DNA of 64,000 bases from a virus. The stretch covers positions 32,608 to 96,607 of IMG/VR virus record IMGVR_UViG_3300020176_000008; one strand, written 5' to 3'. Positions 2,756 through 40,315 of this stretch are shown piece after piece. The notes beneath the pieces are model-generated. The model ran no database searches. It had not been told where the DNA came from and worked only from the letters and a program-made list of their open reading frames with translations. The translations under genes were made by a program, and so were the position numbers. Within the stretch, counting starts at the first letter, position 1; the number at the start of each line of letters is the position of its first letter.

Positions 2756-3112
2756 ATGACACAATATACACGAGCATCAGCAAATATTCTTCTTGAGGCA
2801 GCAGAACTTCAAGAACGTAAAGGATTAGATTATAATAATCCCAATTCCTCAGTACAACAAGCAGACTATTATCCGCGTGGAGTGTGGTCTGTTATGGATA
2901 TTATTAACGCTAAATATCTTCGCATGGTATCTGTTCTAGAGACTATGGAACAAGGCGGGAAAGCTAACTTTGAATCTATTGAAGATTCTGCATTAGATTT
3001 GATTAATTATGCATCGTTCCTTGCAGCATATATGCGTGGGCAGATTCCAGGTCAAGATGTGTCAAAGAAAGATATATTTGGCCGCAAAGTGATTAAAGGA
3101 GAAAATAAATGA
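2756..3112 (+). CDS. Nucleotide-modification-associated helical domain protein (DUF1599/Nmad-like)
   Basis: ERKGLDY...KYLRM...ESIEDSALDLINYA; abuts the thymidylate-synthase-family gene. Confidence 0.55.
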   Translation: MTQYTRASANILLEAAELQERKGLDYNNPNSSVQQADYYPRGVWSVMDIINAKYLRMVSVLETMEQGGKANFESIEDSALDLINYASFLAAYMRGQIPGQDVSKKDIFGRKVIKGENK

Positions 3113-3786
3113 TTCGAGTAGAAGATATACGTACAGAATTTAATAATGCATTACTTGCAGAACAATTTACAGTAGATCGTAATACAGGAGTTCGAACGAT
3201 TGAGTTGTTGAATGCAACCTTTATTGCAGATGAAGATAAAATTTTTGGTACAGTCAATCAAGAATACGTAGAAAAAGAACTGAGCTGGTATCGTTCAATG
3301 TCTCTCAATGTTAATGACATTGAAGGCGGACCACCTGCCGTATGGGCGCAAGTTGCAGATCCAGACGGATTTATTAATTCTAACTATGGATGGTGTATTT
3401 ACTCTGAAGAGAATGGTTATCAGTTTAAACATGTGTTAGAAGAATTAGCACGTGATCCCAATTCTCGACGTGCTAATATGATCTATACTCGTCCTTCAAT
3501 GCATACTGATTATAATAAGAACGGTATGTCCGATTTCATGTGCACAAATAACGTACAATATGTTCTTCGGAATGGCCAACTGCATGCGATGGTGTATATG
3601 CGCAGTAACGATGCAATTTACGGTTATAAGAATGACTACGCATGGCAAAAGTTTGTACAAGCCCAATTGTTAATCGGACTTAATGCACGAACTTCGTCAT
3701 CATATGGTTTAGGCCGTATTATGTGGAATGCTGGTTCTCTGCACATATATGATCGCCACTGGCACTTGATTAAAAAAGAAGCATGA
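3109..3786 (+). CDS. 42: dCMP hydroxymethylase (thymidylate synthase family)
   Basis: INSNYGW, SRRANMIYTRPSM, GMSDFMCTN, MRSNDAIYGYKNDYAWQ, WNAGSLHIY nearly identical to T4 gp42; Asp in KNDYAW is the dCMP-type residue. Confidence 0.92.
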   Translation: MIRVEDIRTEFNNALLAEQFTVDRNTGVRTIELLNATFIADEDKIFGTVNQEYVEKELSWYRSMSLNVNDIEGGPPAVWAQVADPDGFINSNYGWCIYSEENGYQFKHVLEELARDPNSRRANMIYTRPSMHTDYNKNGMSDFMCTNNVQYVLRNGQLHAMVYMRSNDAIYGYKNDYAWQKFVQAQLLIGLNARTSSSYGLGRIMWNAGSLHIYDRHWHLIKKEA

Positions 3787-18786: not shown

Positions 18787-19458
18787 GTGCAAGTACGTCT
18801 TATTTCTTATACAAAACCCTCACGTGAACTTATTGAAGAGGGATTATACGATGTTCAGGAACTAGTGGCATATTGTGCCCGTGTTTCTAACCCAGCAAAT
18901 CAGTTTAACACTGAAACCTCAGAAAAATTAATCGGATATCTAATCAAACATGCTCATTGGTCACCTCTTGAGATGGCAAATGCATGTATTGAAATTGATA
19001 CGACACGTGACATTGCTCACCAGATCGTAAGACATCGCTCTTTCTCGTTTCAAGAATTCTCACAGCGTTATGCTAATGTGGGAGAACTTGGTGATATGTT
19101 TACATTTCGTGAAGCTCGTTTACAAGATGCTAAGAATCGCCAAAATTCCGTAGAGACCGAAGACTCAGAATTGAAGCGTGAATGGATGATTCAGCAGAGA
19201 AAAGTTATTGAAGCCGCAGAGAGTGCTTATAAATGGGCAATCGATAACGGTGTTGCAAAAGAACAGGCTCGTGCAGTTCTACCAGAAGGTCTAACGAAAA
19301 CACGAGTATATATGAATGGTACTATTCGCAGCTGGATTCACTATATTCAGTTACGTGCAGCAAATGGTACACAAAAAGAACATATGGAAATTGCTAAGGC
19401 CTGTGCTAAGGTAATTGCCGATATTTTCCCGTTAACCAATACTCTTCTAGAAGAATAA
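18787..19458 (+). CDS. thyX: Flavin-dependent thymidylate synthase
   Basis: HWSPLE, RHRSFSFQEFSQRY, EQARAVLP. Confidence 0.95.
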   Translation: MQVRLISYTKPSRELIEEGLYDVQELVAYCARVSNPANQFNTETSEKLIGYLIKHAHWSPLEMANACIEIDTTRDIAHQIVRHRSFSFQEFSQRYANVGELGDMFTFREARLQDAKNRQNSVETEDSELKREWMIQQRKVIEAAESAYKWAIDNGVAKEQARAVLPEGLTKTRVYMNGTIRSWIHYIQLRAANGTQKEHMEIAKACAKVIADIFPLTNTLLEE

Positions 19459-21834: not shown

Positions 21835-21989
21835 GGAAATTCTGGAGACTTTGGGCAAGAGCGATTGGTGAGAAATCAGGAAAGAACGTACAAGAAGCTG
21901 ATACCATCGCTCTAATTAGAACATTAATAATATTATGCTATGTTGTAACAAATATGTTCATCATGGCTGGTGTTATCAGACATTGGTAA
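21813..21989 (+). CDS. Small membrane protein (58 aa, not in ORF track)
   Basis: Read manually: MYRLRRLRKFWRLWARAIGEKSGKNVQEADTIALIRTLIILCYVVTNMFIMAGVIRHW; fills the gap exactly. Confidence 0.65.
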   Translation: MYRLRRLRKFWRLWARAIGEKSGKNVQEADTIALIRTLIILCYVVTNMFIMAGVIRHW

Positions 21990-21993
21990 AAAT

Positions 21994-22647
21994 ATGTTAG
22001 AAACTATATGTGACACAATGATGGAAGCGTACAAGCGCAATTGGATTACTAGTAGGGATGGAAACGTCTCTATCCGCCATCACGATCGAAATCATTTTTA
22101 TATTACACCAAGCGGTGTACGTAAACAAACACTACAGCCAGATCAATTTAAAAAGATCGATATTATCGCTGGTATCAATAGTGGAGTAGGTAGTGCGTCG
22201 TTATTATATTGTTGGCAAGAAGCCGAATATACTGATATTAGCAAGAACTTAAAACCTAGTGGAGAGATTCCTCTTCATTTTGGTTTACAGAAAGAATTAC
22301 CACAAGGTTTGGATGTTCGTGTAGTGATGCACTTTCATCCTACCTATTGTGTTGCAGCTATGCATGCTGGAATCGATTTATCGAATGTCTGCAAGGACTT
22401 TCCAGAGTTGAATAGATATACAAGAGTTGCAAAGAATGTACCAGATGTTCCACCTATTAGTCAAGAGTTGGCAGATAACTGTTTCGAAAACCTCGGACTT
22501 AATAGGAACGGAAATATTGAATATGATATAATTGGTATTAAAGGACACGGCGTCGTTGCCATTGATTCTTCGCCATGGCGTGCTTATGAGCACATAGAGA
22601 GATTAGAGCATATTTGTAAAATCGTATTAGCATCAGGAAAACTATAA
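21994..22647 (+). CDS. Class II aldolase/adducin family protein
   Basis: SRDGNVS, YITPSG, PSGEIPLH, HFHPTY, KGHGVV. Confidence 0.85.
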   Translation: MLETICDTMMEAYKRNWITSRDGNVSIRHHDRNHFYITPSGVRKQTLQPDQFKKIDIIAGINSGVGSASLLYCWQEAEYTDISKNLKPSGEIPLHFGLQKELPQGLDVRVVMHFHPTYCVAAMHAGIDLSNVCKDFPELNRYTRVAKNVPDVPPISQELADNCFENLGLNRNGNIEYDIIGIKGHGVVAIDSSPWRAYEHIERLEHICKIVLASGKL

Positions 22648-30311: not shown

Positions 30312-30514
30312 AAAGAAAAAGTAAAATATTCAAAGACGGCAAAGAGGTCGGTTGGGCCAAGTCTGACTATGGTGCAATTAACAATGTGATTAATTCATGT
30401 TTTCAACACAAGTTTGATATAACTTTATTTGAAGTCCGAGATTATTTTACTGATGAAGTACTCTGGAAGGGTGCAGATTATATAAATAGTATGAAGGCAC
30501 AGGAACAGCCTTAA
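30308..30514 (+). CDS. Hypothetical protein
   Basis: Overlaps ligase stop. Confidence 0.5.
   Translation: MKRKSKIFKDGKEVGWAKSDYGAINNVINSCFQHKFDITLFEVRDYFTDEVLWKGADYINSMKAQEQP
30481..30488 (+). promoter_or_regulatory. T4-type late promoter
   Basis: TATAAATA upstream of a small-ORF operon. Confidence 0.6.
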
Positions 30515-30544
30515 TGTTCCATACACACACACAAGGAGGTACAT

Positions 30545-30757
30545 ATGTACACATTAAAAGCTGTGGCGCAGCACAATGCCGAATTCATCAATTCATTTGT
30601 TGATCTTAAAGTAGAAGGCTGGAAAGCTTTCGAAAAAGCATTCAACGCATATACCTACTCTTTCTATAAAGATCAGATTGCTAAAGGCGGAGAAGTTGTT
30701 CAAAAAACAGCTGATATCGTTAAGCAAATCAATAAAGGAGTAGTCGATCATGTCTAA
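30545..30757 (+). CDS. Small amphipathic helical protein
   Basis: Strong AAGGAGG RBS. Confidence 0.65.
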   Translation: MYTLKAVAQHNAEFINSFVDLKVEGWKAFEKAFNAYTYSFYKDQIAKGGEVVQKTADIVKQINKGVVDHV

Positions 30758-30968
30758 AAATCCCTTCGAAATCCGCTCTGAAATGCTTCATATGGCTAAA
30801 GACTACATGGACAAACAGTGGGAAATGAACTATGTGTTCACCCAGCAAATGTTTGAACAAGGTAAGAAAACAGCCGAAGAAATGCAGGCTGCTTTGGCAC
30901 CTTATTCGACCGATGAATTGATGAAAAAGGCTACGGAATTTTATTCTTTCGTATCTAAGAAAGACTAA
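30750..30968 (+). CDS. Conserved small hypothetical protein
   Basis: MSKNPFEIRSEML...A.EFYSFVS. Confidence 0.65.
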   Translation: MSKNPFEIRSEMLHMAKDYMDKQWEMNYVFTQQMFEQGKKTAEEMQAALAPYSTDELMKKATEFYSFVSKKD

Positions 30969-31106
30969 TCATGTGGCCCGTTTCCGACGAGGAATGGGAA
31001 ACTTGGTTTAATCAGCCTACAGGTCCCATCTACAAATAAGAAATCGCCGCCTGGGTGAGTGATCCTTGCCCAGGCATTTTCGCGTGTAAAATCTCAAAAG
31101 GATTAT

Positions 31107-31836: not shown

Positions 31837-32166
31837 ATGTCTAAATTGTTGATTGCTACTCAGTACTGCGAGAATTATGGTTCACCTAACGATCCATATT
31901 GGAAGATGAAGGGCGGATCCGAATACGTGGTCGAGGGTCTAGATTTTGATGCCGACTACGAATGGGCAGAAGTTCGTGTTGATCAAATCCTGACCAAGAT
32001 TCGGGATCAAGTTGAAATCTCCAACCCTATGTGTGAGGAATACATCCTCGGTTGGTCTATTGTTGCCGACGACTATTTGACCGATTACGAACGCAGTCAA
32101 CTCGAGTTCGACGGCAAGATTGATTTTCCTGCGAAAATTATTGTTATCGATGAAATGTGTGTATAA
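31837..32166 (+). CDS. Conserved hypothetical protein
   Basis: AAGGAG RBS; TQYCENYG...YWKMKGGSEY. Confidence 0.65.
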   Translation: MSKLLIATQYCENYGSPNDPYWKMKGGSEYVVEGLDFDADYEWAEVRVDQILTKIRDQVEISNPMCEEYILGWSIVADDYLTDYERSQLEFDGKIDFPAKIIVIDEMCV

Positions 32167-32232
32167 ATATTTCGCGCGTTGAAGAATGCATTATCTATAA
32201 AATAATAAAAAGTGTATAATTGATTTTGATTA

Positions 32233-32307
32233 GCCGGATTAGCTCAGTGGTAGAGCAACCGCCTTGTAAGCGGTAGGTCGTCAGTTCGAACCCGACATCC
32301 GGCACCA
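32233..32307 (+). tRNA. tRNA-Thr(UGU)
   Basis: Cloverleaf, ACCGC-CTTGTAA-GCGGT, GTTCGAA, encoded CCA. Confidence 0.95.
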
Positions 32308-32308
32308 T

Positions 32309-32384
32309 TCCTCGATAGCTCAGTTGGTAGAGCAGCAGACTGTTAATCTGTTGGTCGTAGGTTCGAGCCCTACTCGAGGAGCCA
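32309..32384 (+). tRNA. tRNA-Asn(GUU)
   Basis: TCCTCGA/TCGAGGA acceptor, GCAGA-CTGTTAA-TCTGT, CCA. Confidence 0.95.
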
Positions 32385-32389
32385 TTTTT

Positions 32390-32474
32390 GGAAGTGCCGC
32401 CGTAATGGTATGGCAGCGGACTGTAACTCCGCCGACGTAAGTCACAATAGGTTCGATCCCTATCACTTCCACCA
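32390..32474 (+). tRNA. tRNA-Tyr(GUA)
   Basis: GGAAGTG/CACTTCC, GCGGA-CTGTAAC-TCCGC, long variable arm, CCA. Confidence 0.93.
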
Positions 32475-32529
32475 AAGATGTATATAATACAAATTGTGTT
32501 ATAATAAGAAAGAACCCATGCAAGTGCCT

Positions 32530-32607
32530 CGGAGATTAGGAGAGTCTGGTTAATCCGCTCGGTTTGGGACCGAGAAATCGTAGGTTCGAATCCTACATCT
32601 CCGACCA
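32530..32607 (+). tRNA. tRNA-Pro(UGG)
   Basis: CGGAGAT/ATCTCCG, CTCGG-TTTGGGA-CCGAG, CCA. Confidence 0.95.
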
Positions 32608-32614
32608 TTATTAC

Positions 32615-32722
32615 ACGCCTCGCAGCGTAATTCAACGAAAGTTGAACGTGCAAATCGAGTTGACTCTAGTCAATTTTTACGGTGATTACGATAAAATCAC
32701 GACGGAAGTTCGTAACCGTCAC
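32615..32722 (+). ncRNA. Candidate structured RNA between tRNA-Pro and tRNA-Leu
   Basis: Four consecutive hairpins, one with a GAAA tetraloop; no plausible ORF on +. Confidence 0.45.
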
Positions 32723-32730
32723 TAACAAAA

Positions 32731-32815
32731 GCGGGTGTGGCGTAATTGGTAGCCGCACTAGATTTAGGTTCTAGCGTTGAAAGACGTGGGGGTTCGAGTC
32801 CCTTCACCCGCACCA
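32731..32815 (+). tRNA. tRNA-Leu(UAG)
   Basis: GCGGGTG/CACCCGC, CTAGA-TTTAGGT-TCTAG, long variable arm, CCA. Confidence 0.95.
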
Positions 32816-32842
32816 TACATTTTTATTAAGGAGTATGTTATA

Positions 32843-32971
32843 ATGGCAGCTGTAAAAGGAAAAGAAGTACGCCGCAAGGTGCATAAAGGAACTTGCCAAA
32901 ATGGTAGTAAAACTGCCAGTGCAAATAAATGTCGTAAAGATCACAAAAAATATCGCGGTCAAGGCCGTTAA
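32843..32971 (+). CDS. Small basic protein
   Basis: AAGGAG RBS; ends KKYRGQGR. Confidence 0.6.
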   Translation: MAAVKGKEVRRKVHKGTCQNGSKTASANKCRKDHKKYRGQGR

Positions 32972-32979
32972 TTAACAAT

Positions 32980-33064
32980 GCGACTGTGGTGAAATTGGTA
33001 TACACAACAGACTTAAAATCTGTCGACGCAAGTCATGCCAGTTCGATTCTGGCCAGTCGCACCA
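32980..33064 (+). tRNA. tRNA-Leu(UAA)
   Basis: GCGACTG/CAGTCGC, ACAGA-CTTAAAA-TCTGT, CCA. Confidence 0.95.
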
Positions 33065-33077
33065 TTTGGAGAATATA

Positions 33078-33617
33078 ATGAGTTTGAAATTTGTGCCTGA
33101 CACGACATTTTATATGCGTGTTCGTGATGAGAGTATCGGAGGAGATAATCCTTTCCGATGGGAATTGCAAACAAGTAAAGACTTGTTTTTAAATAAGCGC
33201 GTAGTAATCTTTTCACTTCCAGGAGCATTTACTCCTACATGTTCTACATTCCAGGTTCCTGGGTTTGAGGCGGCATACGAGGAGATTCGTTCTCTTGGCA
33301 TTGACGAAGTTTATGTCGTATCTGTTAATGATGCATTCGTTATGCGTAAATGGATGATCGACCAAAAAGTAGAAAAGCTGAAAGCGCTACCGGATGGTAA
33401 TGGCGAATTTACTACCGGAATGGGAATGCTTGTTAGCAAAAAGAATCTCGGCTTTGGTTACCGCTCATGGCGTTATGCGGCAGTCATCAAAGATTGCATC
33501 GTAGAACGTACGTTTGTGGAACCAGGTATTATGGATCTTGCACCAGGTGATCCATATGGAGAGACACATCCAGATACAGTTGTTAACTATCTAAAAGCTG
33601 TAGCAAATCTAGTATAA
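33078..33617 (+). CDS. Peroxiredoxin (Prx5-like)
   Basis: SLPGAFTPTCS, VSVNDAFVM, DGNGEF, RSWRYA. Confidence 0.93.
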   Translation: MSLKFVPDTTFYMRVRDESIGGDNPFRWELQTSKDLFLNKRVVIFSLPGAFTPTCSTFQVPGFEAAYEEIRSLGIDEVYVVSVNDAFVMRKWMIDQKVEKLKALPDGNGEFTTGMGMLVSKKNLGFGYRSWRYAAVIKDCIVERTFVEPGIMDLAPGDPYGETHPDTVVNYLKAVANLV

Positions 33618-33689
33618 GATACTGCCGTGTGAAGGCACGGGGAGTCTACGGACTCCCCACCTATACTTCAATAATCCCTGAATTATATT

Positions 33690-33797
33690 ATGAAAAATGT
33701 TATAATAATTTTTATTAGTCTTATGATGGCTTCTTGTGCAGTCACTAGATATTCTGTGGATGTTAGATTTCCTTCAGGTAACATAAGTATAAGGTAG
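33690..33797 (+). CDS. Small lipoprotein (35 aa, not in ORF track)
   Basis: MKNVIIIFISLMMAS-CAVTRY... lipobox. Confidence 0.5.
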   Translation: MKNVIIIFISLMMASCAVTRYSVDVRFPSGNISIR

Positions 33798-33801
33798 ATT
33801 C

Positions 33802-33878
33802 CTGCCCTTAGCTCAGTTGGATAGAGCAACAGCCTTCTAAGCTGTGGGTCGGGAGTTCGAACCTCTCAGGGCAGGCCA
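33802..33878 (+). tRNA. tRNA-Arg(UCU)
   Basis: CTGCCCT/AGGGCAG, ACAGC-CTTCTAA-GCTGT, CCA. Confidence 0.95.
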
Positions 33879-33879
33879 T

Positions 33880-33953
33880 GCGGGATTAGTTTAATGGGAA
33901 AACTGTAGATTTCCAATCTTCCGTTAGGAGTTCGATTCTCCTATCCCGCTCCA
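33880..33953 (+). tRNA. tRNA-Gly(UCC)
   Basis: GCGGGAT/ATCCCGC, anticodon loop TTTCCAA (one U-U mismatch in stem), U discriminator, CCA. Confidence 0.88.
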
Positions 33954-33971
33954 TTTATAAAAGGTAGAATT

Positions 33972-34943
33972 ATGGGTAAAGCTTTATACCAAGTTACGCA
34001 GAGTGAAACTAACAAAGATTTATATTTAGGTATGGATCGTGCAGATGGGCGCGACTACTACCTCGATATGTGGGGTACATATAAATCTAGGTTTGGTACA
34101 CCAGTAGTAGAAGAGTATGAAGACAAATATATTCTACGTGCAGATCTTGCACCAGGCGGACTAAAAGCTTTCGGCGGTGAGCGCGTGATATCTGATTCTC
34201 CTCGCGATACATTTGTATACGTAGCTCCACGTCAAGGTCACGCTCCCGACGCAATCGCTGCTATTGCTCGTGAATACGGCAAGAAGGTTGTATTCTTTAT
34301 GCCAGCATCTAAGCAAGTATCAGATCACCAAGGATCTGTATTTGCTTATGAGAACGTTGAAGTTCGGTTCTTTAAGACAGCAGCAATGCCTATGTTAAAT
34401 GGTTATGCAAAGAAGTGGGCTATCCAACGCGGATATGGATACATTCCATTTGGATTTAAAGAGACTCCAATTGTTACCGCTGGACTCATCAACATGTGTC
34501 GAACAGTGTCCAACGATCTTGGCAAGGATCCTGCAGAAATCTATTGCGCAGTATCAACTGGTACGATGATTCGCGCACTTCAACTCGGTTGGCCGAATGC
34601 CACTCCAAGAGGCGTTGCGGTTGCTCGCAATATTAAAGATGGCGAGAAGGGTGAAGCTATTATAGAGTCCGCAACAATCCCCTTTCTCACAAAGACCCCT
34701 GACGCAGATACCATGCCATTTCCCACGACTGGTGCTTATGATGCAAAAGCTTGGTATCTATTTAAGCGTGACGCAAAGCCAGGATCGATATTTATTAATG
34801 TTGGATCCGATGCACAGATCAATAGGAACCTAAAATACGTCAATACAGAATCTATAAATTCTCAAAGAGAATGGAACGATCTTGGCGATTGGGAAGTTAA
34901 TAGAAGTCTTAAAGACGGATATACTAGTCATTTAATCACATAA
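33972..34943 (+). CDS. PLP-dependent fold-type II enzyme (D-cysteine desulfhydrase/ACC deaminase-like)
   Basis: LRADLAPGGLKA (PLP Lys), VSTGTM phosphate loop, YDAKA, FINVG. Confidence 0.75.
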   Translation: MGKALYQVTQSETNKDLYLGMDRADGRDYYLDMWGTYKSRFGTPVVEEYEDKYILRADLAPGGLKAFGGERVISDSPRDTFVYVAPRQGHAPDAIAAIAREYGKKVVFFMPASKQVSDHQGSVFAYENVEVRFFKTAAMPMLNGYAKKWAIQRGYGYIPFGFKETPIVTAGLINMCRTVSNDLGKDPAEIYCAVSTGTMIRALQLGWPNATPRGVAVARNIKDGEKGEAIIESATIPFLTKTPDADTMPFPTTGAYDAKAWYLFKRDAKPGSIFINVGSDAQINRNLKYVNTESINSQREWNDLGDWEVNRSLKDGYTSHLIT

Positions 34944-34952
34944 GGAATCGAT

Positions 34953-35258
34953 ATGAAAAAACTATTATTAACAATTGCTCTTGCCGTGACTGCAACTGTA
35001 TCTATGGCAGATACCCGTGCTCTTGCACAAAAAAATATGTGTTTAGCTTGTCATGCTGTGGACAAGAAACTGGTTGGGCCAGCATATAAAGATGTGGCTG
35101 CTAAATACGCAGGACGCAAAGACGCAGTTGAATATTTGACTAAGAAAATTAAATCAGGAGGTAGTGGTGTATGGGGTGTAATTCCTATGCCTGCACAACC
35201 TCAATTAACTGATGCCCAGGTTAAAGAATTGGCAGAATGGGTACTTAAAACAAAATGA
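34953..35258 (+). CDS. Periplasmic cytochrome c (c551/c552-type)
   Basis: Sec signal peptide, CLACH heme motif, VGPAYKDVAAKY, WGVIPMP axial Met. Confidence 0.93.
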   Translation: MKKLLLTIALAVTATVSMADTRALAQKNMCLACHAVDKKLVGPAYKDVAAKYAGRKDAVEYLTKKIKSGGSGVWGVIPMPAQPQLTDAQVKELAEWVLKTK

Positions 35259-36400
35259 TTGATCCACGAATTAAACTAATTGTTGCCGACGAAGGTGTTA
35301 GACAACAGGATACAATCGAACTTATTGCCAGCGAAAACTTCACTAGCGATGCAGTAATGGAACTATGCGGTAGTATTCTTACCAATAAGTACGCCGAAGG
35401 TCTTCCTGGAAAACGTTATTACAATGGATGCGAAGAAGTTGATAAGGTTGAAGAACTTGCGATTGAATACGCTACTGAGTTGTTTGGTTGTAAATACGCA
35501 AACGTCCAACCTCATTCTGGTGCCAATGCTAACCTAGCAGTGTTCAAAGCATTCTTGAGTCCAGGCGATGTTATCCTTGGTATGGACTTGGCAAGTGGTG
35601 GACATTTATCACATGGTGCTGGTGTCAACGTTAGCGGCAGATGGTTTACGTCTTATAGCTATGGTGTTGATAGTAACGGGCGTCTTGATTACCAAGACAT
35701 TGCTGATAAAGCAAATTTGTATCAACCCAAAATGATTATTGCTGGTGCCAGTGCATACAGTCAAGTCATTGATTGGGAAGCATTCCGTGCAATTGCTGAT
35801 TCAGTTGGTGCTATTCTACTTGCAGACGTCAGTCACTACTCAGGATTGGTTGCCGGTGGCGAATACCCAAGTCCATTCCCATATGCAGATGTAGTGACTA
35901 CAACAACACATAAGACATTGCGAGGTCCTCGTGGTGGTATGATTATGTGGGATGAAGAAGACTTTAGCAAGAAGATCAACGGCGCAGTATTTCCTGGAAC
36001 TCAAGGTGGTCCATTGATGCATATTATTGCTGCCAAAGCACAATGTTTCTATGAAGCACTCCAGCCTGAGTTTAAGCTATATGCTAAACGTATACGTATC
36101 AATGCACATGCAATGGCACAAACATTTATGGATGCCGGTGTTGATGTTGTATCAGGTGGAACACAATGCCACATGATGACAATCAACTTGAACAAAGAGA
36201 AATATAGTGGTCGTCAGTTTGCTGACTTATTGGAAGCAAACGGTATTACCGCAAATAAGAATGGTGTACCTGGTGATACTCGCGGCTTTGTTGAAACCAG
36301 TGGTGTACGTATTGGAGTTGCTGCAGAGACAACTCGTGGACATGACGAAGCATGGTTCAAAGCACTGGCCGAACGAATGATTAAACTTCTGAGGGATTAA
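35255..36400 (+). CDS. glyA: Serine hydroxymethyltransferase
   Basis: LIASENF, YAEGLPGKRYY, NVQPHSGA, GGHLSHG, TTTTHKTLRGPRGG. Confidence 0.97.
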   Translation: MIDPRIKLIVADEGVRQQDTIELIASENFTSDAVMELCGSILTNKYAEGLPGKRYYNGCEEVDKVEELAIEYATELFGCKYANVQPHSGANANLAVFKAFLSPGDVILGMDLASGGHLSHGAGVNVSGRWFTSYSYGVDSNGRLDYQDIADKANLYQPKMIIAGASAYSQVIDWEAFRAIADSVGAILLADVSHYSGLVAGGEYPSPFPYADVVTTTTHKTLRGPRGGMIMWDEEDFSKKINGAVFPGTQGGPLMHIIAAKAQCFYEALQPEFKLYAKRIRINAHAMAQTFMDAGVDVVSGGTQCHMMTINLNKEKYSGRQFADLLEANGITANKNGVPGDTRGFVETSGVRIGVAAETTRGHDEAWFKALAERMIKLLRD

Positions 36401-36406
36401 TACAGT

Positions 36407-36483
36407 ACACCTATAGCTCAGTTGGTTAGAGCAGTGGACTCATAATCCATTGGTCCTAGGTTCAAGTCCTAGTGGGTGTACCA
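36407..36483 (+). tRNA. tRNA with CAU anticodon (Ile2-like or Met)
   Basis: ACACCTA/TGGGTGT, GTGGA-CTCATAA-TCCAT, GTTCAAGT, CCA; layout resembles lysidine-type tRNA-Ile2. Confidence 0.88.
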
Positions 36484-37761: not shown

Positions 37762-38295
37762 ATGTACAAGAAGCTAGCAATTGCTGTTAGCTTTATTATT
37801 TCTACATCCATCACGATTGCTCAACCAATCGTCACTGATTCGACTTCAAGCAGCACAGTAAATTCGACATCAAAGGCCGAGACTACCGTCAAGTCTCCGC
37901 CACCAAGTGCAATATCACCATCAATAAATGCTAGTAACACTGACCTATGTACGGTCGGTGTATCAGGCGCAGTACAGACTCAGATACTAGGTATCTCGGG
38001 TGCCACTACTGTGCGTGATATGAATTGCGAACGATTAAAGTTATCCAAGACCCTTTACGATATGGGTATGAAGGTTGCTGCCATTTCTACATTATGCCAA
38101 GACCCAAGAGTCTTTGATGCAATGTTGATGGCAGGAACGCCATGTCCGTACGAAGGTAAGATTGGTCCTGAAGCTAAAGAAGCCTGGAAGCAAGCAGGCA
38201 AGACTAGTAGCGTAGAACCAGTTGTTGAGGATAAGAATGAAAATACTGCGTATATTGGCTGGGGTATTGTTACTCTCCTGCTTATCGGTCTCTAA
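37762..38295 (+). CDS. Exported/membrane protein with four Cys
   Basis: Signal peptide; PPPSAISP, DLC...NCERLKLSK.LYDMGMKVAA...CQD...GTPCP; C-terminal TM. Confidence 0.7.
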   Translation: MYKKLAIAVSFIISTSITIAQPIVTDSTSSSTVNSTSKAETTVKSPPPSAISPSINASNTDLCTVGVSGAVQTQILGISGATTVRDMNCERLKLSKTLYDMGMKVAAISTLCQDPRVFDAMLMAGTPCPYEGKIGPEAKEAWKQAGKTSSVEPVVEDKNENTAYIGWGIVTLLLIGL

Positions 38296-40315
38296 AGCAG
38301 ATACCAGCCAAAACCTCATAGATCAACAAGCTTGGGAAGGTATCACTTATGGTGCCGATCCAGGCGGCTGTTGTGCGTCTATCTCTGGCAGTGGTCCTCT
38401 ATTTGATACTACGACCAATACGATTATGTTTTCGTATGGCAATGCATTGGTGTCACAGACTATTGCTATTAATCAAGCATTGAAAGCAACTGGTATTCAA
38501 GTTGATGGATACCAATACCACTGGCATTATAAGTTGATGCCAAACAATGGTGGTGGAACTGACACATTGACATTTGAAGTATCTGTAAAAGATTCTGCAG
38601 GTCAAGTGGTCGAAACTTACACATACGATTACTCAGGTCCAGCCGATGGGTTGGATGTACATCAAGATGGTGTGCAACTGTTCAATCAATCGTATACGGA
38701 TCCTCAAAGTATTGCATTGAAAATACGTGGTAAGGATGGTGGATTTTGGGGTGGTTACTATGGGCCTGAAATTACGTATACTGATTTACGATTGATTTAC
38801 TCTGTAGATCCATGCGCCGGCAACCCATTATTTGATCCAAGTTGTGCTGGTTATGCAGAAGCATTTGCCAAACAATTGTATGACCAAAATTGTGCTGCAA
38901 ATCCATTGTATGACTCTGGATGTCCTGGATATACAACAGCGTATTTCAATCAGCAATGTAGTTTCAGTCCTTTATACAATCAAGCATGTCCTGGTTATAC
39001 TGAGGCGTATTACGATCAACAATGTTCGGCAAACCCATTATACGATTCGCAGTGCCCTGGATATGCTCAGGCATATGAAGACCAACAGTGTTCGATTAAC
39101 CCCCTTTTTTCAACCAACTGCTCGGGATATCAAGAAGCTTACCACGCCCAACAATGTGGTTTAAATGCGCTATACGCTTCTGATTGTCCTGGTTATGCTG
39201 AGGCATATTACGATCAACAATGTAAAAGTAATCCACTGTATGATACCGGATGTCCAGGATATGCACCAGCATTCTATAGTCAACAATGTTCCATAACTGC
39301 ATTGTATGATACAGGATGCCCAGGATATGCTGCTGCATATTATGATCAACAATGTTCGTTGAACCCTCTTTACGATAGCGGTTGTACTGGATATGACACT
39401 GCGTACTTTAATCAACAGTGTTCGTTGAACTCATTGTATGATGCCAATTGCCCAGATTATGCTACTGCATACTACAATCAACAATGTACAGCAGATCCGT
39501 TGTATGACTCAGGATGCCCAGGATACTCAACAGCGTATTTCAATCAGCAATGTTCGCTGAATCCACTATACGATGCAACATGCCCAGGATATGCTACCGC
39601 ATACTATAATCAACAATGTACTATAACCGCACTGTATGATACCGGATGTCCAGGATATCAAGAGGCATATGCAACCAAGATGTTATTAGAACGACAACAG
39701 GAGGAAACTTCCAATCCTGTAGTAGAAACTGAAACAGCATCTATTGTTTATGTCGATCCAGTTGCATCATTGACCACAATTAGTTCAACGGGTGATGCCG
39801 TCGTTGATAGTGTAATATCGGCACCAGTAACAATAATAATGGAGGTAGCAGTTAATGAACCAATACAGGACACCAGTAGTACTGTGGACGAGCCATTGGA
39901 AGAAGCTGGGGGAGGAGACAGTGGTGGATCGGAAGGGGAATCAGAAAGTGGTGGAGACTCTAGTTCTAATGGGGACTCCAAATCTGAATCATCCTCTAAA
40001 TCAAAATCTACTAGAGAAAAAGTAAAAGAAGCTATGACTGAGAAAGCTCAGAACTTAGCTAACGAGATGAGCGGTGCTGCGTCACTTCAAGCGCAACAAG
40101 CTATACAGGCACAGTTAACTGCGATTATGAACTATAATCCTGGATTTGCAGCATACGGACAGTTCCGTATTCCTGGTGTAGATTTTTATGCATCAGAGGA
40201 AATATACGTCAACGCCATTGTTCCAGAAACCAAAAGGGGTTTACGGAATGGTTTGGCCCAACAAATTCTTCATAATAAAATGGTAGAATCACAATATAAC
40301 AATAATAAGGAGTGA
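38237..40315 (+). CDS. Large exported protein with Cys-rich tandem repeats
   Basis: Signal peptide, beta-rich domain, 13 CxxNPLYDxxCPGY repeats, Ser/Gly/Glu linker, helical C-terminus. Confidence 0.8.
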   Translation: MKILRILAGVLLLSCLSVSKADTSQNLIDQQAWEGITYGADPGGCCASISGSGPLFDTTTNTIMFSYGNALVSQTIAINQALKATGIQVDGYQYHWHYKLMPNNGGGTDTLTFEVSVKDSAGQVVETYTYDYSGPADGLDVHQDGVQLFNQSYTDPQSIALKIRGKDGGFWGGYYGPEITYTDLRLIYSVDPCAGNPLFDPSCAGYAEAFAKQLYDQNCAANPLYDSGCPGYTTAYFNQQCSFSPLYNQACPGYTEAYYDQQCSANPLYDSQCPGYAQAYEDQQCSINPLFSTNCSGYQEAYHAQQCGLNALYASDCPGYAEAYYDQQCKSNPLYDTGCPGYAPAFYSQQCSITALYDTGCPGYAAAYYDQQCSLNPLYDSGCTGYDTAYFNQQCSLNSLYDANCPDYATAYYNQQCTADPLYDSGCPGYSTAYFNQQCSLNPLYDATCPGYATAYYNQQCTITALYDTGCPGYQEAYATKMLLERQQEETSNPVVETETASIVYVDPVASLTTISSTGDAVVDSVISAPVTIIMEVAVNEPIQDTSSTVDEPLEEAGGGDSGGSEGESESGGDSSSNGDSKSESSSKSKSTREKVKEAMTEKAQNLANEMSGAASLQAQQAIQAQLTAIMNYNPGFAAYGQFRIPGVDFYASEEIYVNAIVPETKRGLRNGLAQQILHNKMVESQYNNNKE
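38813..39670 (+). repeat. Coding tandem repeat, 66-nt (22-aa) unit, 13 copies
   Basis: Counted from translation: C-x2-NPLYD-x2-CPGY-x2-AYYxQQ. Confidence 0.9.

Follow-up and report, generated by a model that had tools for sequence, protein, structure and literature searches.

Cytochromes of the c551/c552 family (c8, class ID, COG4654) are known from Pseudomonas aeruginosa (351c), Hydrogenobacter thermophilus (1ayg, 1ynr) and N. europaea (1a56, 3zow). As c8-type cytochromes, they pass electrons from bc1 on to a terminal oxidase, to nitrite reductase or to peroxidase. In Betaproteobacteria c8 cytochromes are soluble periplasmic donors (PMC8954225), and a c8-type soluble periplasmic carrier is described from Allochromatium (PMC3368242). 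The phage protein described here is like the family in length, fold, N-terminal CXXCH, His/Met ligation, WG-x-x-PMP loop and basic surface; it differs in being encoded by a lytic-type phage, in having Gln64, Tyr34 and Tyr43 (P. aeruginosa numbering) and, relative to the Pseudomonas and Hydrogenobacter proteins, in a loop after the Met that is one residue longer. Its closest cellular homologues are the ilvD-linked c551 proteins of Burkholderiales (Acidovorax, Rhodoferax, Hydrogenophaga and small-genome Burkholderiaceae), which have the same 101-aa precursor layout and are up to 64% identical over the full length and 67% over the mature part, but which mostly use GC-rich codons and mostly carry Asn64 and Lys43.

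Phage-borne electron carriers are themselves not new, cyanophage plastocyanin PetE being one of them. Phages also carry SoxD, SoxYZ and DsrC (PMC8190135), a NapC/NirT multihaem protein in amoC-phages (10.64898/2026.06.18.733297), nrfH (PMC13243649) and ccm/cbb genes (PMC13547368), and in sulfur pathways they are reported to favour small carriers over enzymes (Kieft et al., PMC8190135). The phage c551 resembles all of these as a host-derived electron-transfer gene of the kind thought to relieve an energy bottleneck. However, none of them is a free soluble monohaem c551, and the phage c551, unlike those carriers, has no fixed link to a single lithotrophic or photosynthetic gene cluster. We found no paper describing a phage-borne c551 in the literature searched, which covered few subscription journals. 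Genes of this type are already present in an automated viral protein catalogue, where PHROG 36206, labelled 'unknown function', matches residues 8-98 of the phage cytochrome (E 3.6e-26).

Genomic setting of the cytochrome gene

The gene lies in a stretch of 64,000 nucleotides, here called the window, taken from a 102,519-base IMG/VR virus record that is 62% complete. Translations of the record include T4-like terminase, sheath, portal, capsid, gp55 and gp43, with capsid and polymerase confirmed by homology. T4-like RNase H, ligase and tRNA genes precede the block that holds the cytochrome (Table 1). With T4-like viral genes flanking the cytochrome, and capsid, terminase and gp43 on the same record, the gene is phage-encoded, as the initial annotation had proposed. 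The other features named there (signal peptide, CXXCH, axial Met motif, AAGGA ribosome-binding site and a stop overlapping the glyA start) are likewise all present, and the gene is confirmed as an intact ORF. Its ribosome-binding site shares bases with the TAA stop that ends the PLP-enzyme gene before it and is ordinary for this genome, AGGA or GGAG standing upstream of 36 of 89 ORFs; at the other end, the cytochrome TGA stop and the glyA ATG share the ATGA at 35255-35258.

Table 1. Features of the cytochrome locus, in window coordinates.
Feature	Position	Strand	Basis or remark
T4-type late promoter motif TATAAATA	32162..32169	+	upstream of the tRNA/cytochrome block; next site 36583
Block of 9 tRNA genes	32233..36483	+	ARAGORN; encloses peroxiredoxin, PLP enzyme, cytochrome and glyA
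Peroxiredoxin (Redoxin family)	33066..33617	+	also in this block; no demonstrated link to the cytochrome
PLP-dependent (PALP-like) enzyme gene	33972..34943	+	PHROG 7093, E 3e-55; Pfam PALP below cut-off
Shine-Dalgarno AAGGA	34942..34946	+	6 nt 5' of the cytochrome ATG; sequence
Cytochrome c551/c552 gene (c8-type, class I monohaem)	34953..35258	+	ATG start, 101-aa precursor
Sec/SPase I-type signal peptide, aa 1-19	34953..35009	+	predicted from sequence pattern, hydropathy and invariant A19/D20
Haem-binding motif C30-L-A-C33-H34 (CXXCH)	35040..35054	+	invariant in 74 aligned homologues
W74-G-x-x-P-M79-P loop with axial Met	35172..35192	+	W74, G75, P78, M79 and P80 invariant; aligned to PDB c551/c552
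glyA, serine hydroxymethyltransferase, 381 aa	35255..36400	+	Pfam SHMT, E 1e-145; NCBIfam NF000586 above cut-off

The same PLP enzyme-cytochrome-glyA order recurs in another phage locus (L235), and a homologue search with glyA returned phage-type proteins only. For the PLP enzyme, a pattern scan found one IMG/VR relative (77%, L315), on a record without the cytochrome.

The late promoter motif at 32162 may drive the cytochrome gene, and its position before the block hints at late expression; in a scan of the genome this motif occurs at 16 sites on the plus (coding) strand and 1 on the minus strand. Scans for sigma-70 promoters and terminators gave matches at chance level. RNA contigs from two runs cover parts of the block and none is listed over the cytochrome gene, these contigs being scattered, short, of low depth and of a kind that cannot show absence. 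Elsewhere in the window, two small genes at 30481-30968 (70 and 72 aa, without a Pfam or PHROG family) follow the TATAAATA motif and lie under RNA contigs in both metatranscriptome runs (30542-30969, X15; 30567-30873, X17); the impression they give is vaguely phasin-like.

Three other regions of the window deserve mention. The genes at 3109-3786 and 18787-19458 encode a ThyA-like protein, which may be a base-modifying hydroxymethylase, and ThyX; with a dCMP-deaminase-like gene and ORFs of no assigned family beside them, they hint at modified DNA bases. A 697-aa secreted-looking protein with many Cys-rich repeats (C..NPLY..CPGY) is encoded at 38222-40315 and has no Pfam or NCBIfam match. At 21970-22647 there is a class II aldolase-family gene, copies of which, 72-79% identical, adjoin the cytochrome or glyA in numerous further phages (L001, L037, L136, L139, L145, L212-L216 and L225).

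The window was found in 13 salt-marsh runs of 2018 (92-99% of sampled words), 11 of them a possible source; runs holding a small share of its words were left out of the habitat reading. In two samples a single contig spans the PLP gene, cytochrome and glyA at phage-level depth: X1 (33822-36439) at 46, against 29-52 for flanking phage DNA, and X12 (33849-35521) at 14, against 11-20. Neither contig shows a differing letter, and one of the two runs is not marked as a possible source. The assembly chimera that the initial annotation had asked to be considered is therefore not what we find. Chimera and contamination of the locus are excluded because of these bridging contigs together with the phage-like GC3, the dN/dS and the conservation of the junction in independent phages, described below.

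Fold, haem ligands and export

Matches of the ORF to Pfam Cytochrom_C (PF00034; E 3.5e-10, 41.5 bits against a cut-off of 21.3, profile positions 5-89 of 90) and to PDB c551/c552 entries (E 1e-30 to 1e-21) are far beyond chance, and the best solved relatives are all c551/c552. Two other c-type families were tried and rejected, the Firmicute lipoprotein c551 (NF045774; 20.7 against 118 bits) and the membrane c550 (NF045773; 19.2 against 125 bits). With an AlphaFold model of the phage cytochrome (pLDDT 78), the best 21 Foldseek matches are again all c551/c552, and the model superposes on P. aeruginosa c551, H. thermophilus c552 and N. europaea c552 with an rmsd of 1.6-2.0 A (TM 0.84-0.89 by target); identity to the three is 51-62%. 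The mature protein is 82 aa long, with the c551 fold and a Pro-flanked Met loop. By all features testable from sequence and model, it is a predicted member of the c551/c552 (c8) family.

The single CXXCH, at mature positions 11-15 near the N-terminus, is the only one among ORFs of at least 60 aa in the 102.5-kb genome. About 45 residues after its His, the axial Met M79 (codon 35187-35189) stands in the local sequence W-G-V-I-P-M-P and in sequence alignment falls on Met61 of the PDB c551/c552 proteins. Residues C30, C33, H34, W74 and M79 correspond to Cys12, Cys15, His16, Trp56 and Met61 in the numbering of P. aeruginosa c551.

At the start of the precursor two Lys precede a hydrophobic segment (hydropathy up to 3.0 over 9 residues), after which comes S-M-A/D, and the A19-D20 cleavage site is invariant in 30 members of the clade described below. 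No lipobox Cys, twin-Arg or second hydrophobic segment occurs in the sequence. The protein is thus predicted to be soluble and periplasmic, exported by a Sec signal peptide. The mature part is basic (pI 9.5), and because its net charge of about +6 is like that of host c551, its docking surface and partners would seem to be unchanged relative to the host protein. The best structural match is 1dvv, a quintuple mutant of P. aeruginosa c551; the phage clade has Tyr at both 34 and 43, substitutions that are stabilising in that mutant, and the stability of the phage c551 may exceed that of the host protein.

Origin and spread among phages

The initial annotation had noticed neither the large, phage-associated clade of which the gene is part nor the apparent repeated capture of c551 by phages. 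The best 51 protein clusters that match it are 67-93% identical and, after identical mature sequences were collapsed, a 46-row clade unites the query with them (SH-aLRT 98; in a careful tree a subset has support of 100/96). An identical protein is encoded on a contig of 156.7 kb. All 14 genomic contexts read for clade members, the window included, are phage-like, with 36-43% GC and phage-type neighbours. In about half (8 of 14) glyA follows the cytochrome directly, mostly with the same ATGA overlap, and in the remainder an AhpD/CMD, DHFR-thyA, endolysin or baseplate-type gene stands beside it. The surroundings are T4-like in some phages and jumbo-phage-like in others, and because neighbouring genes differ so much, the c551 gene has probably moved between phage groups.

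Several other features of these loci were observed. A 77-aa ORF of no known family (L136:1818-2051) lies directly upstream of the cytochrome in L136, L137, L139, L145, L236 and L237 and beside glyA in eight further viral loci, and is absent from the record of the window. Host-like gene islands occur in cytochrome-bearing phages (L145:3630-13646, L134:2737-7632, L136:524-6474), with genes for ferredoxin (DUF3470), Bax-inhibitor/YccA, IscU, a D-amino acid dehydrogenase-like protein, GMP reductase/IMPDH, AhpD/CMD, ribosomal S21, FolE and QueD. On phage contig L003 (7595-10120) a c551 gene lies near tripartite tricarboxylate transporter-like genes, with a TctA/TctC look judged from translations only, and in another T4-like phage (L034:2251-2640) a c551 gene and, after it, an ORF with a twin-arginine-like signal stand between the genes for sliding clamp and clamp loader.

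The phage gene is under purifying selection, with a median dN/dS of 0.11 over the mature part (range 0.07-0.19, 52 pairs). Its GC3 of 0.23 compares with 0.33 +/- 0.05 for the phage genome and with 0.56-0.99 in all but two bacterial homologues; this phage-like codon usage indicates that the gene is long resident in phages.

More distant c551 genes occur on other IMG/VR contigs (28 loci including duplicates, one of which, L007, looks bacterial). Of these, two join a Methylophilaceae protein (98/91), and a third falls within a small-genome Burkholderiaceae genus (99/89). With only 82 columns and some long branches, the tree test rejects a single clade of all viral c551 (p-AU 0.024, with no fewer than 9 state changes). 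Because viral c551 do not form one clade, phages have probably captured the gene several times, the evidence for which is moderate. The 50,697 deposited phage records contain no match to the phage c551, and a search of 15 related records, T4-like or carrying glyA and in 3 cases 90% complete or more, gave none either. That the gene is uncommon in phages, as first described, is borne out by these counts: c551 is an accessory gene, widespread but patchy.

The leading cellular matches are from Burkholderiales (Acidovorax, Rhodoferax, Hydrogenophaga and others; 55-64% over the full length). A c551 gene is present in 344 of 401 Burkholderiales genomes, a tally that takes in one unpublished genome (G299), at no more than 67% identity in the mature part; among 301 genomes drawn from the whole class, only 5 reach E 1e-27. 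A betaproteobacterial donor, which the initial annotation had read from sequence style, is accordingly supported at the level of this order, and a donor within Burkholderiales is likely. The identity margin is thin, Hydrogenobacter c552 being 62% identical against 67% for Burkholderiales. The phage clade takes in none of the bacterial sequences sampled, and its sister group is unstable, three usable trees (82 columns) giving different or open sisters. We therefore reject any assignment of the donor below order level. A small-genome Burkholderiaceae genus (the G178 group) shares a D-A-V-x-Y-L-T-K-K-I-K motif with the phage clade; as its sister it is not rejected (p-AU 0.52), and no tree supports it. 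The phage itself most likely infects a Burkholderiales bacterium. Cultured relatives of its capsid (best match 61%) and polymerase (49%) are too distant to be informative about the host.

Bacterial c551 adjoins ilvD in 88 of 144 loci and never adjoins glyA in the loci read. Because the bacterial gene is usually beside ilvD and never beside glyA, the cytochrome-glyA pair was assembled in phages.

Function and significance

We consider the gene to be, more likely than not, a functional host-derived accessory gene that would add a soluble carrier to the periplasmic electron transfer of the host. The precursor would be exported by the host Sec system and cut by signal peptidase I, and haem c would be attached by the host's own maturation system. 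The resulting basic His/Met cytochrome of about 9 kDa could then enter the host pool of soluble carriers, carrying electrons one at a time from the bc1 complex, or from dehydrogenases of the periplasm, to a terminal oxidase or other c551-dependent acceptor. Quinol re-oxidation and proton-motive force might thereby be maintained during the shutdown of host gene expression, as is thought for cyanophage plastocyanin and the phage SoxYZ/DsrC carriers, to which we liken this role. The support of host electron transport put forward in the initial annotation is plausible. No Ccm/Ccs gene (PF01578) or oxidase subunit I gene (PF00115) was found in the 62% complete record or in the other records searched, which are fragments. 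Because neither these nor a peroxidase gene was found in the record, maturation and partner enzymes probably come from the host, where they should exist, since most Burkholderiales genomes carry c551. Against this reading, the host already has a c551 and the gain from a second copy is assumed; moreover, the 15 related T4-like phage records lack the gene, and the lead of Burkholderiales in identity over Hydrogenobacter is small.

It is unlikely, in our judgement, that the cytochrome instead serves one specific host branch, as acceptor for Sox or other periplasmic dehydrogenases, as reaction-centre donor in aerobic anoxygenic phototrophs or as nitrite reductase donor. In Rubrivivax and Rhodocyclus c8 does donate to the reaction centre (PMC8954225), and one careful tree joins the phage clade with accessory c551 paralogues (83/88, not starred), among them one inside a sox cluster of Pandoraea (soxCD-cytc-soxYZ-soxA, L103) and one in L074 that lies downstream of two genes, gph-like and fba-like. 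Gln at position 64 is common to the phage clade and these paralogues, whereas the main ilvD-linked host copy has Asn (72/78). However, the grouping is lost once more paralogues are added, mean identity to the accessory paralogues (0.61-0.63) is no higher than to Acidovorax/Rhodoferax c551 (0.64-0.67), and no SoxY (PF13501) was found in the record of the window (62% complete) or in 15 cytochrome-bearing virus records, all fragments.

Defence against peroxide or oxidative stress, by passing electrons to a host periplasmic cytochrome c peroxidase, is very unlikely. Cytochrome c peroxidase can take electrons from P. aeruginosa c551, a peroxiredoxin gene lies 1.3 kb upstream of the cytochrome, the genome has a Dps/ferritin gene, and two relatives (L014, L136) carry an AhpD/CMD gene directly downstream of c551. 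Yet peroxiredoxin and AhpD, both thiol enzymes of the cytoplasm, make no use of a periplasmic cytochrome c, peroxiredoxin is near c551 in only one other locus checked (L049), and CCP_MauG (PF03150) was not found in the 62% complete record or in four other records, which are fragments. With no cytochrome c peroxidase gene found and neighbours that change between phages, the peroxide detoxification suggested in the initial annotation finds little support.

Still more improbable is a dedicated glycine/serine oxidation or one-carbon module of cytochrome and glyA (with or without dadA) that drains electrons during nucleotide synthesis. The frequent cytochrome-glyA adjacency noted above speaks for it, as do dadA adjacent or near in 4 contexts and DHFR-thyA next to the cytochrome in 2. 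However, 6 of the 14 contexts have no glyA next door, and only 1 of 24 IMG/VR glyA loci has a cytochrome within 3 kb, which rules out an obligate partnership; GlyA is cytoplasmic and needs no cytochrome, glyA is accounted for by the phage's ThyX, and the record contains no match to dadA. The pair looks like a co-mobile cassette.

That the gene is a neutral passenger, recent host contamination or an assembly chimera is barely credible: the record is metagenomic and one IMG/VR match (L007, 65% GC) looks bacterial, but the dN/dS contradicts neutrality, the GC3 is that of a phage gene, bacterial homologues are all at most 67% identical, single contigs bridge the locus in two samples and the cytochrome-glyA junction is conserved in independent phages.

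Nothing in the protein chemistry is new, and phages with other c-type cytochromes have been recorded before, so that this one is less surprising. Support of the host energy chain by phage genes is well established in photosynthesis and in the oxidation of sulfur, methane and ammonia, but far less has been documented on a general respiratory carrier of heterotrophs. Here about 50 protein clusters (90% identity) represent an intact, selected c551 gene that shows signs of having been captured several times independently. The phage c551 is a possible host marker for uncultured Burkholderiales phages and, as a small and easily expressed protein, offers a test of whether phages prop up host respiration. 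We suggest tentatively, as something quite possible, that large aquatic Burkholderiales phages repeatedly took the host bc1-to-oxidase shuttle, and that one phage-specific c551 lineage then spread between unrelated phage genera. If true, soluble cytochrome c would be a common, previously undescribed respiratory counterpart of cyanophage plastocyanin, and periplasmic electron carriage would be an infection bottleneck in heterotrophic plankton.
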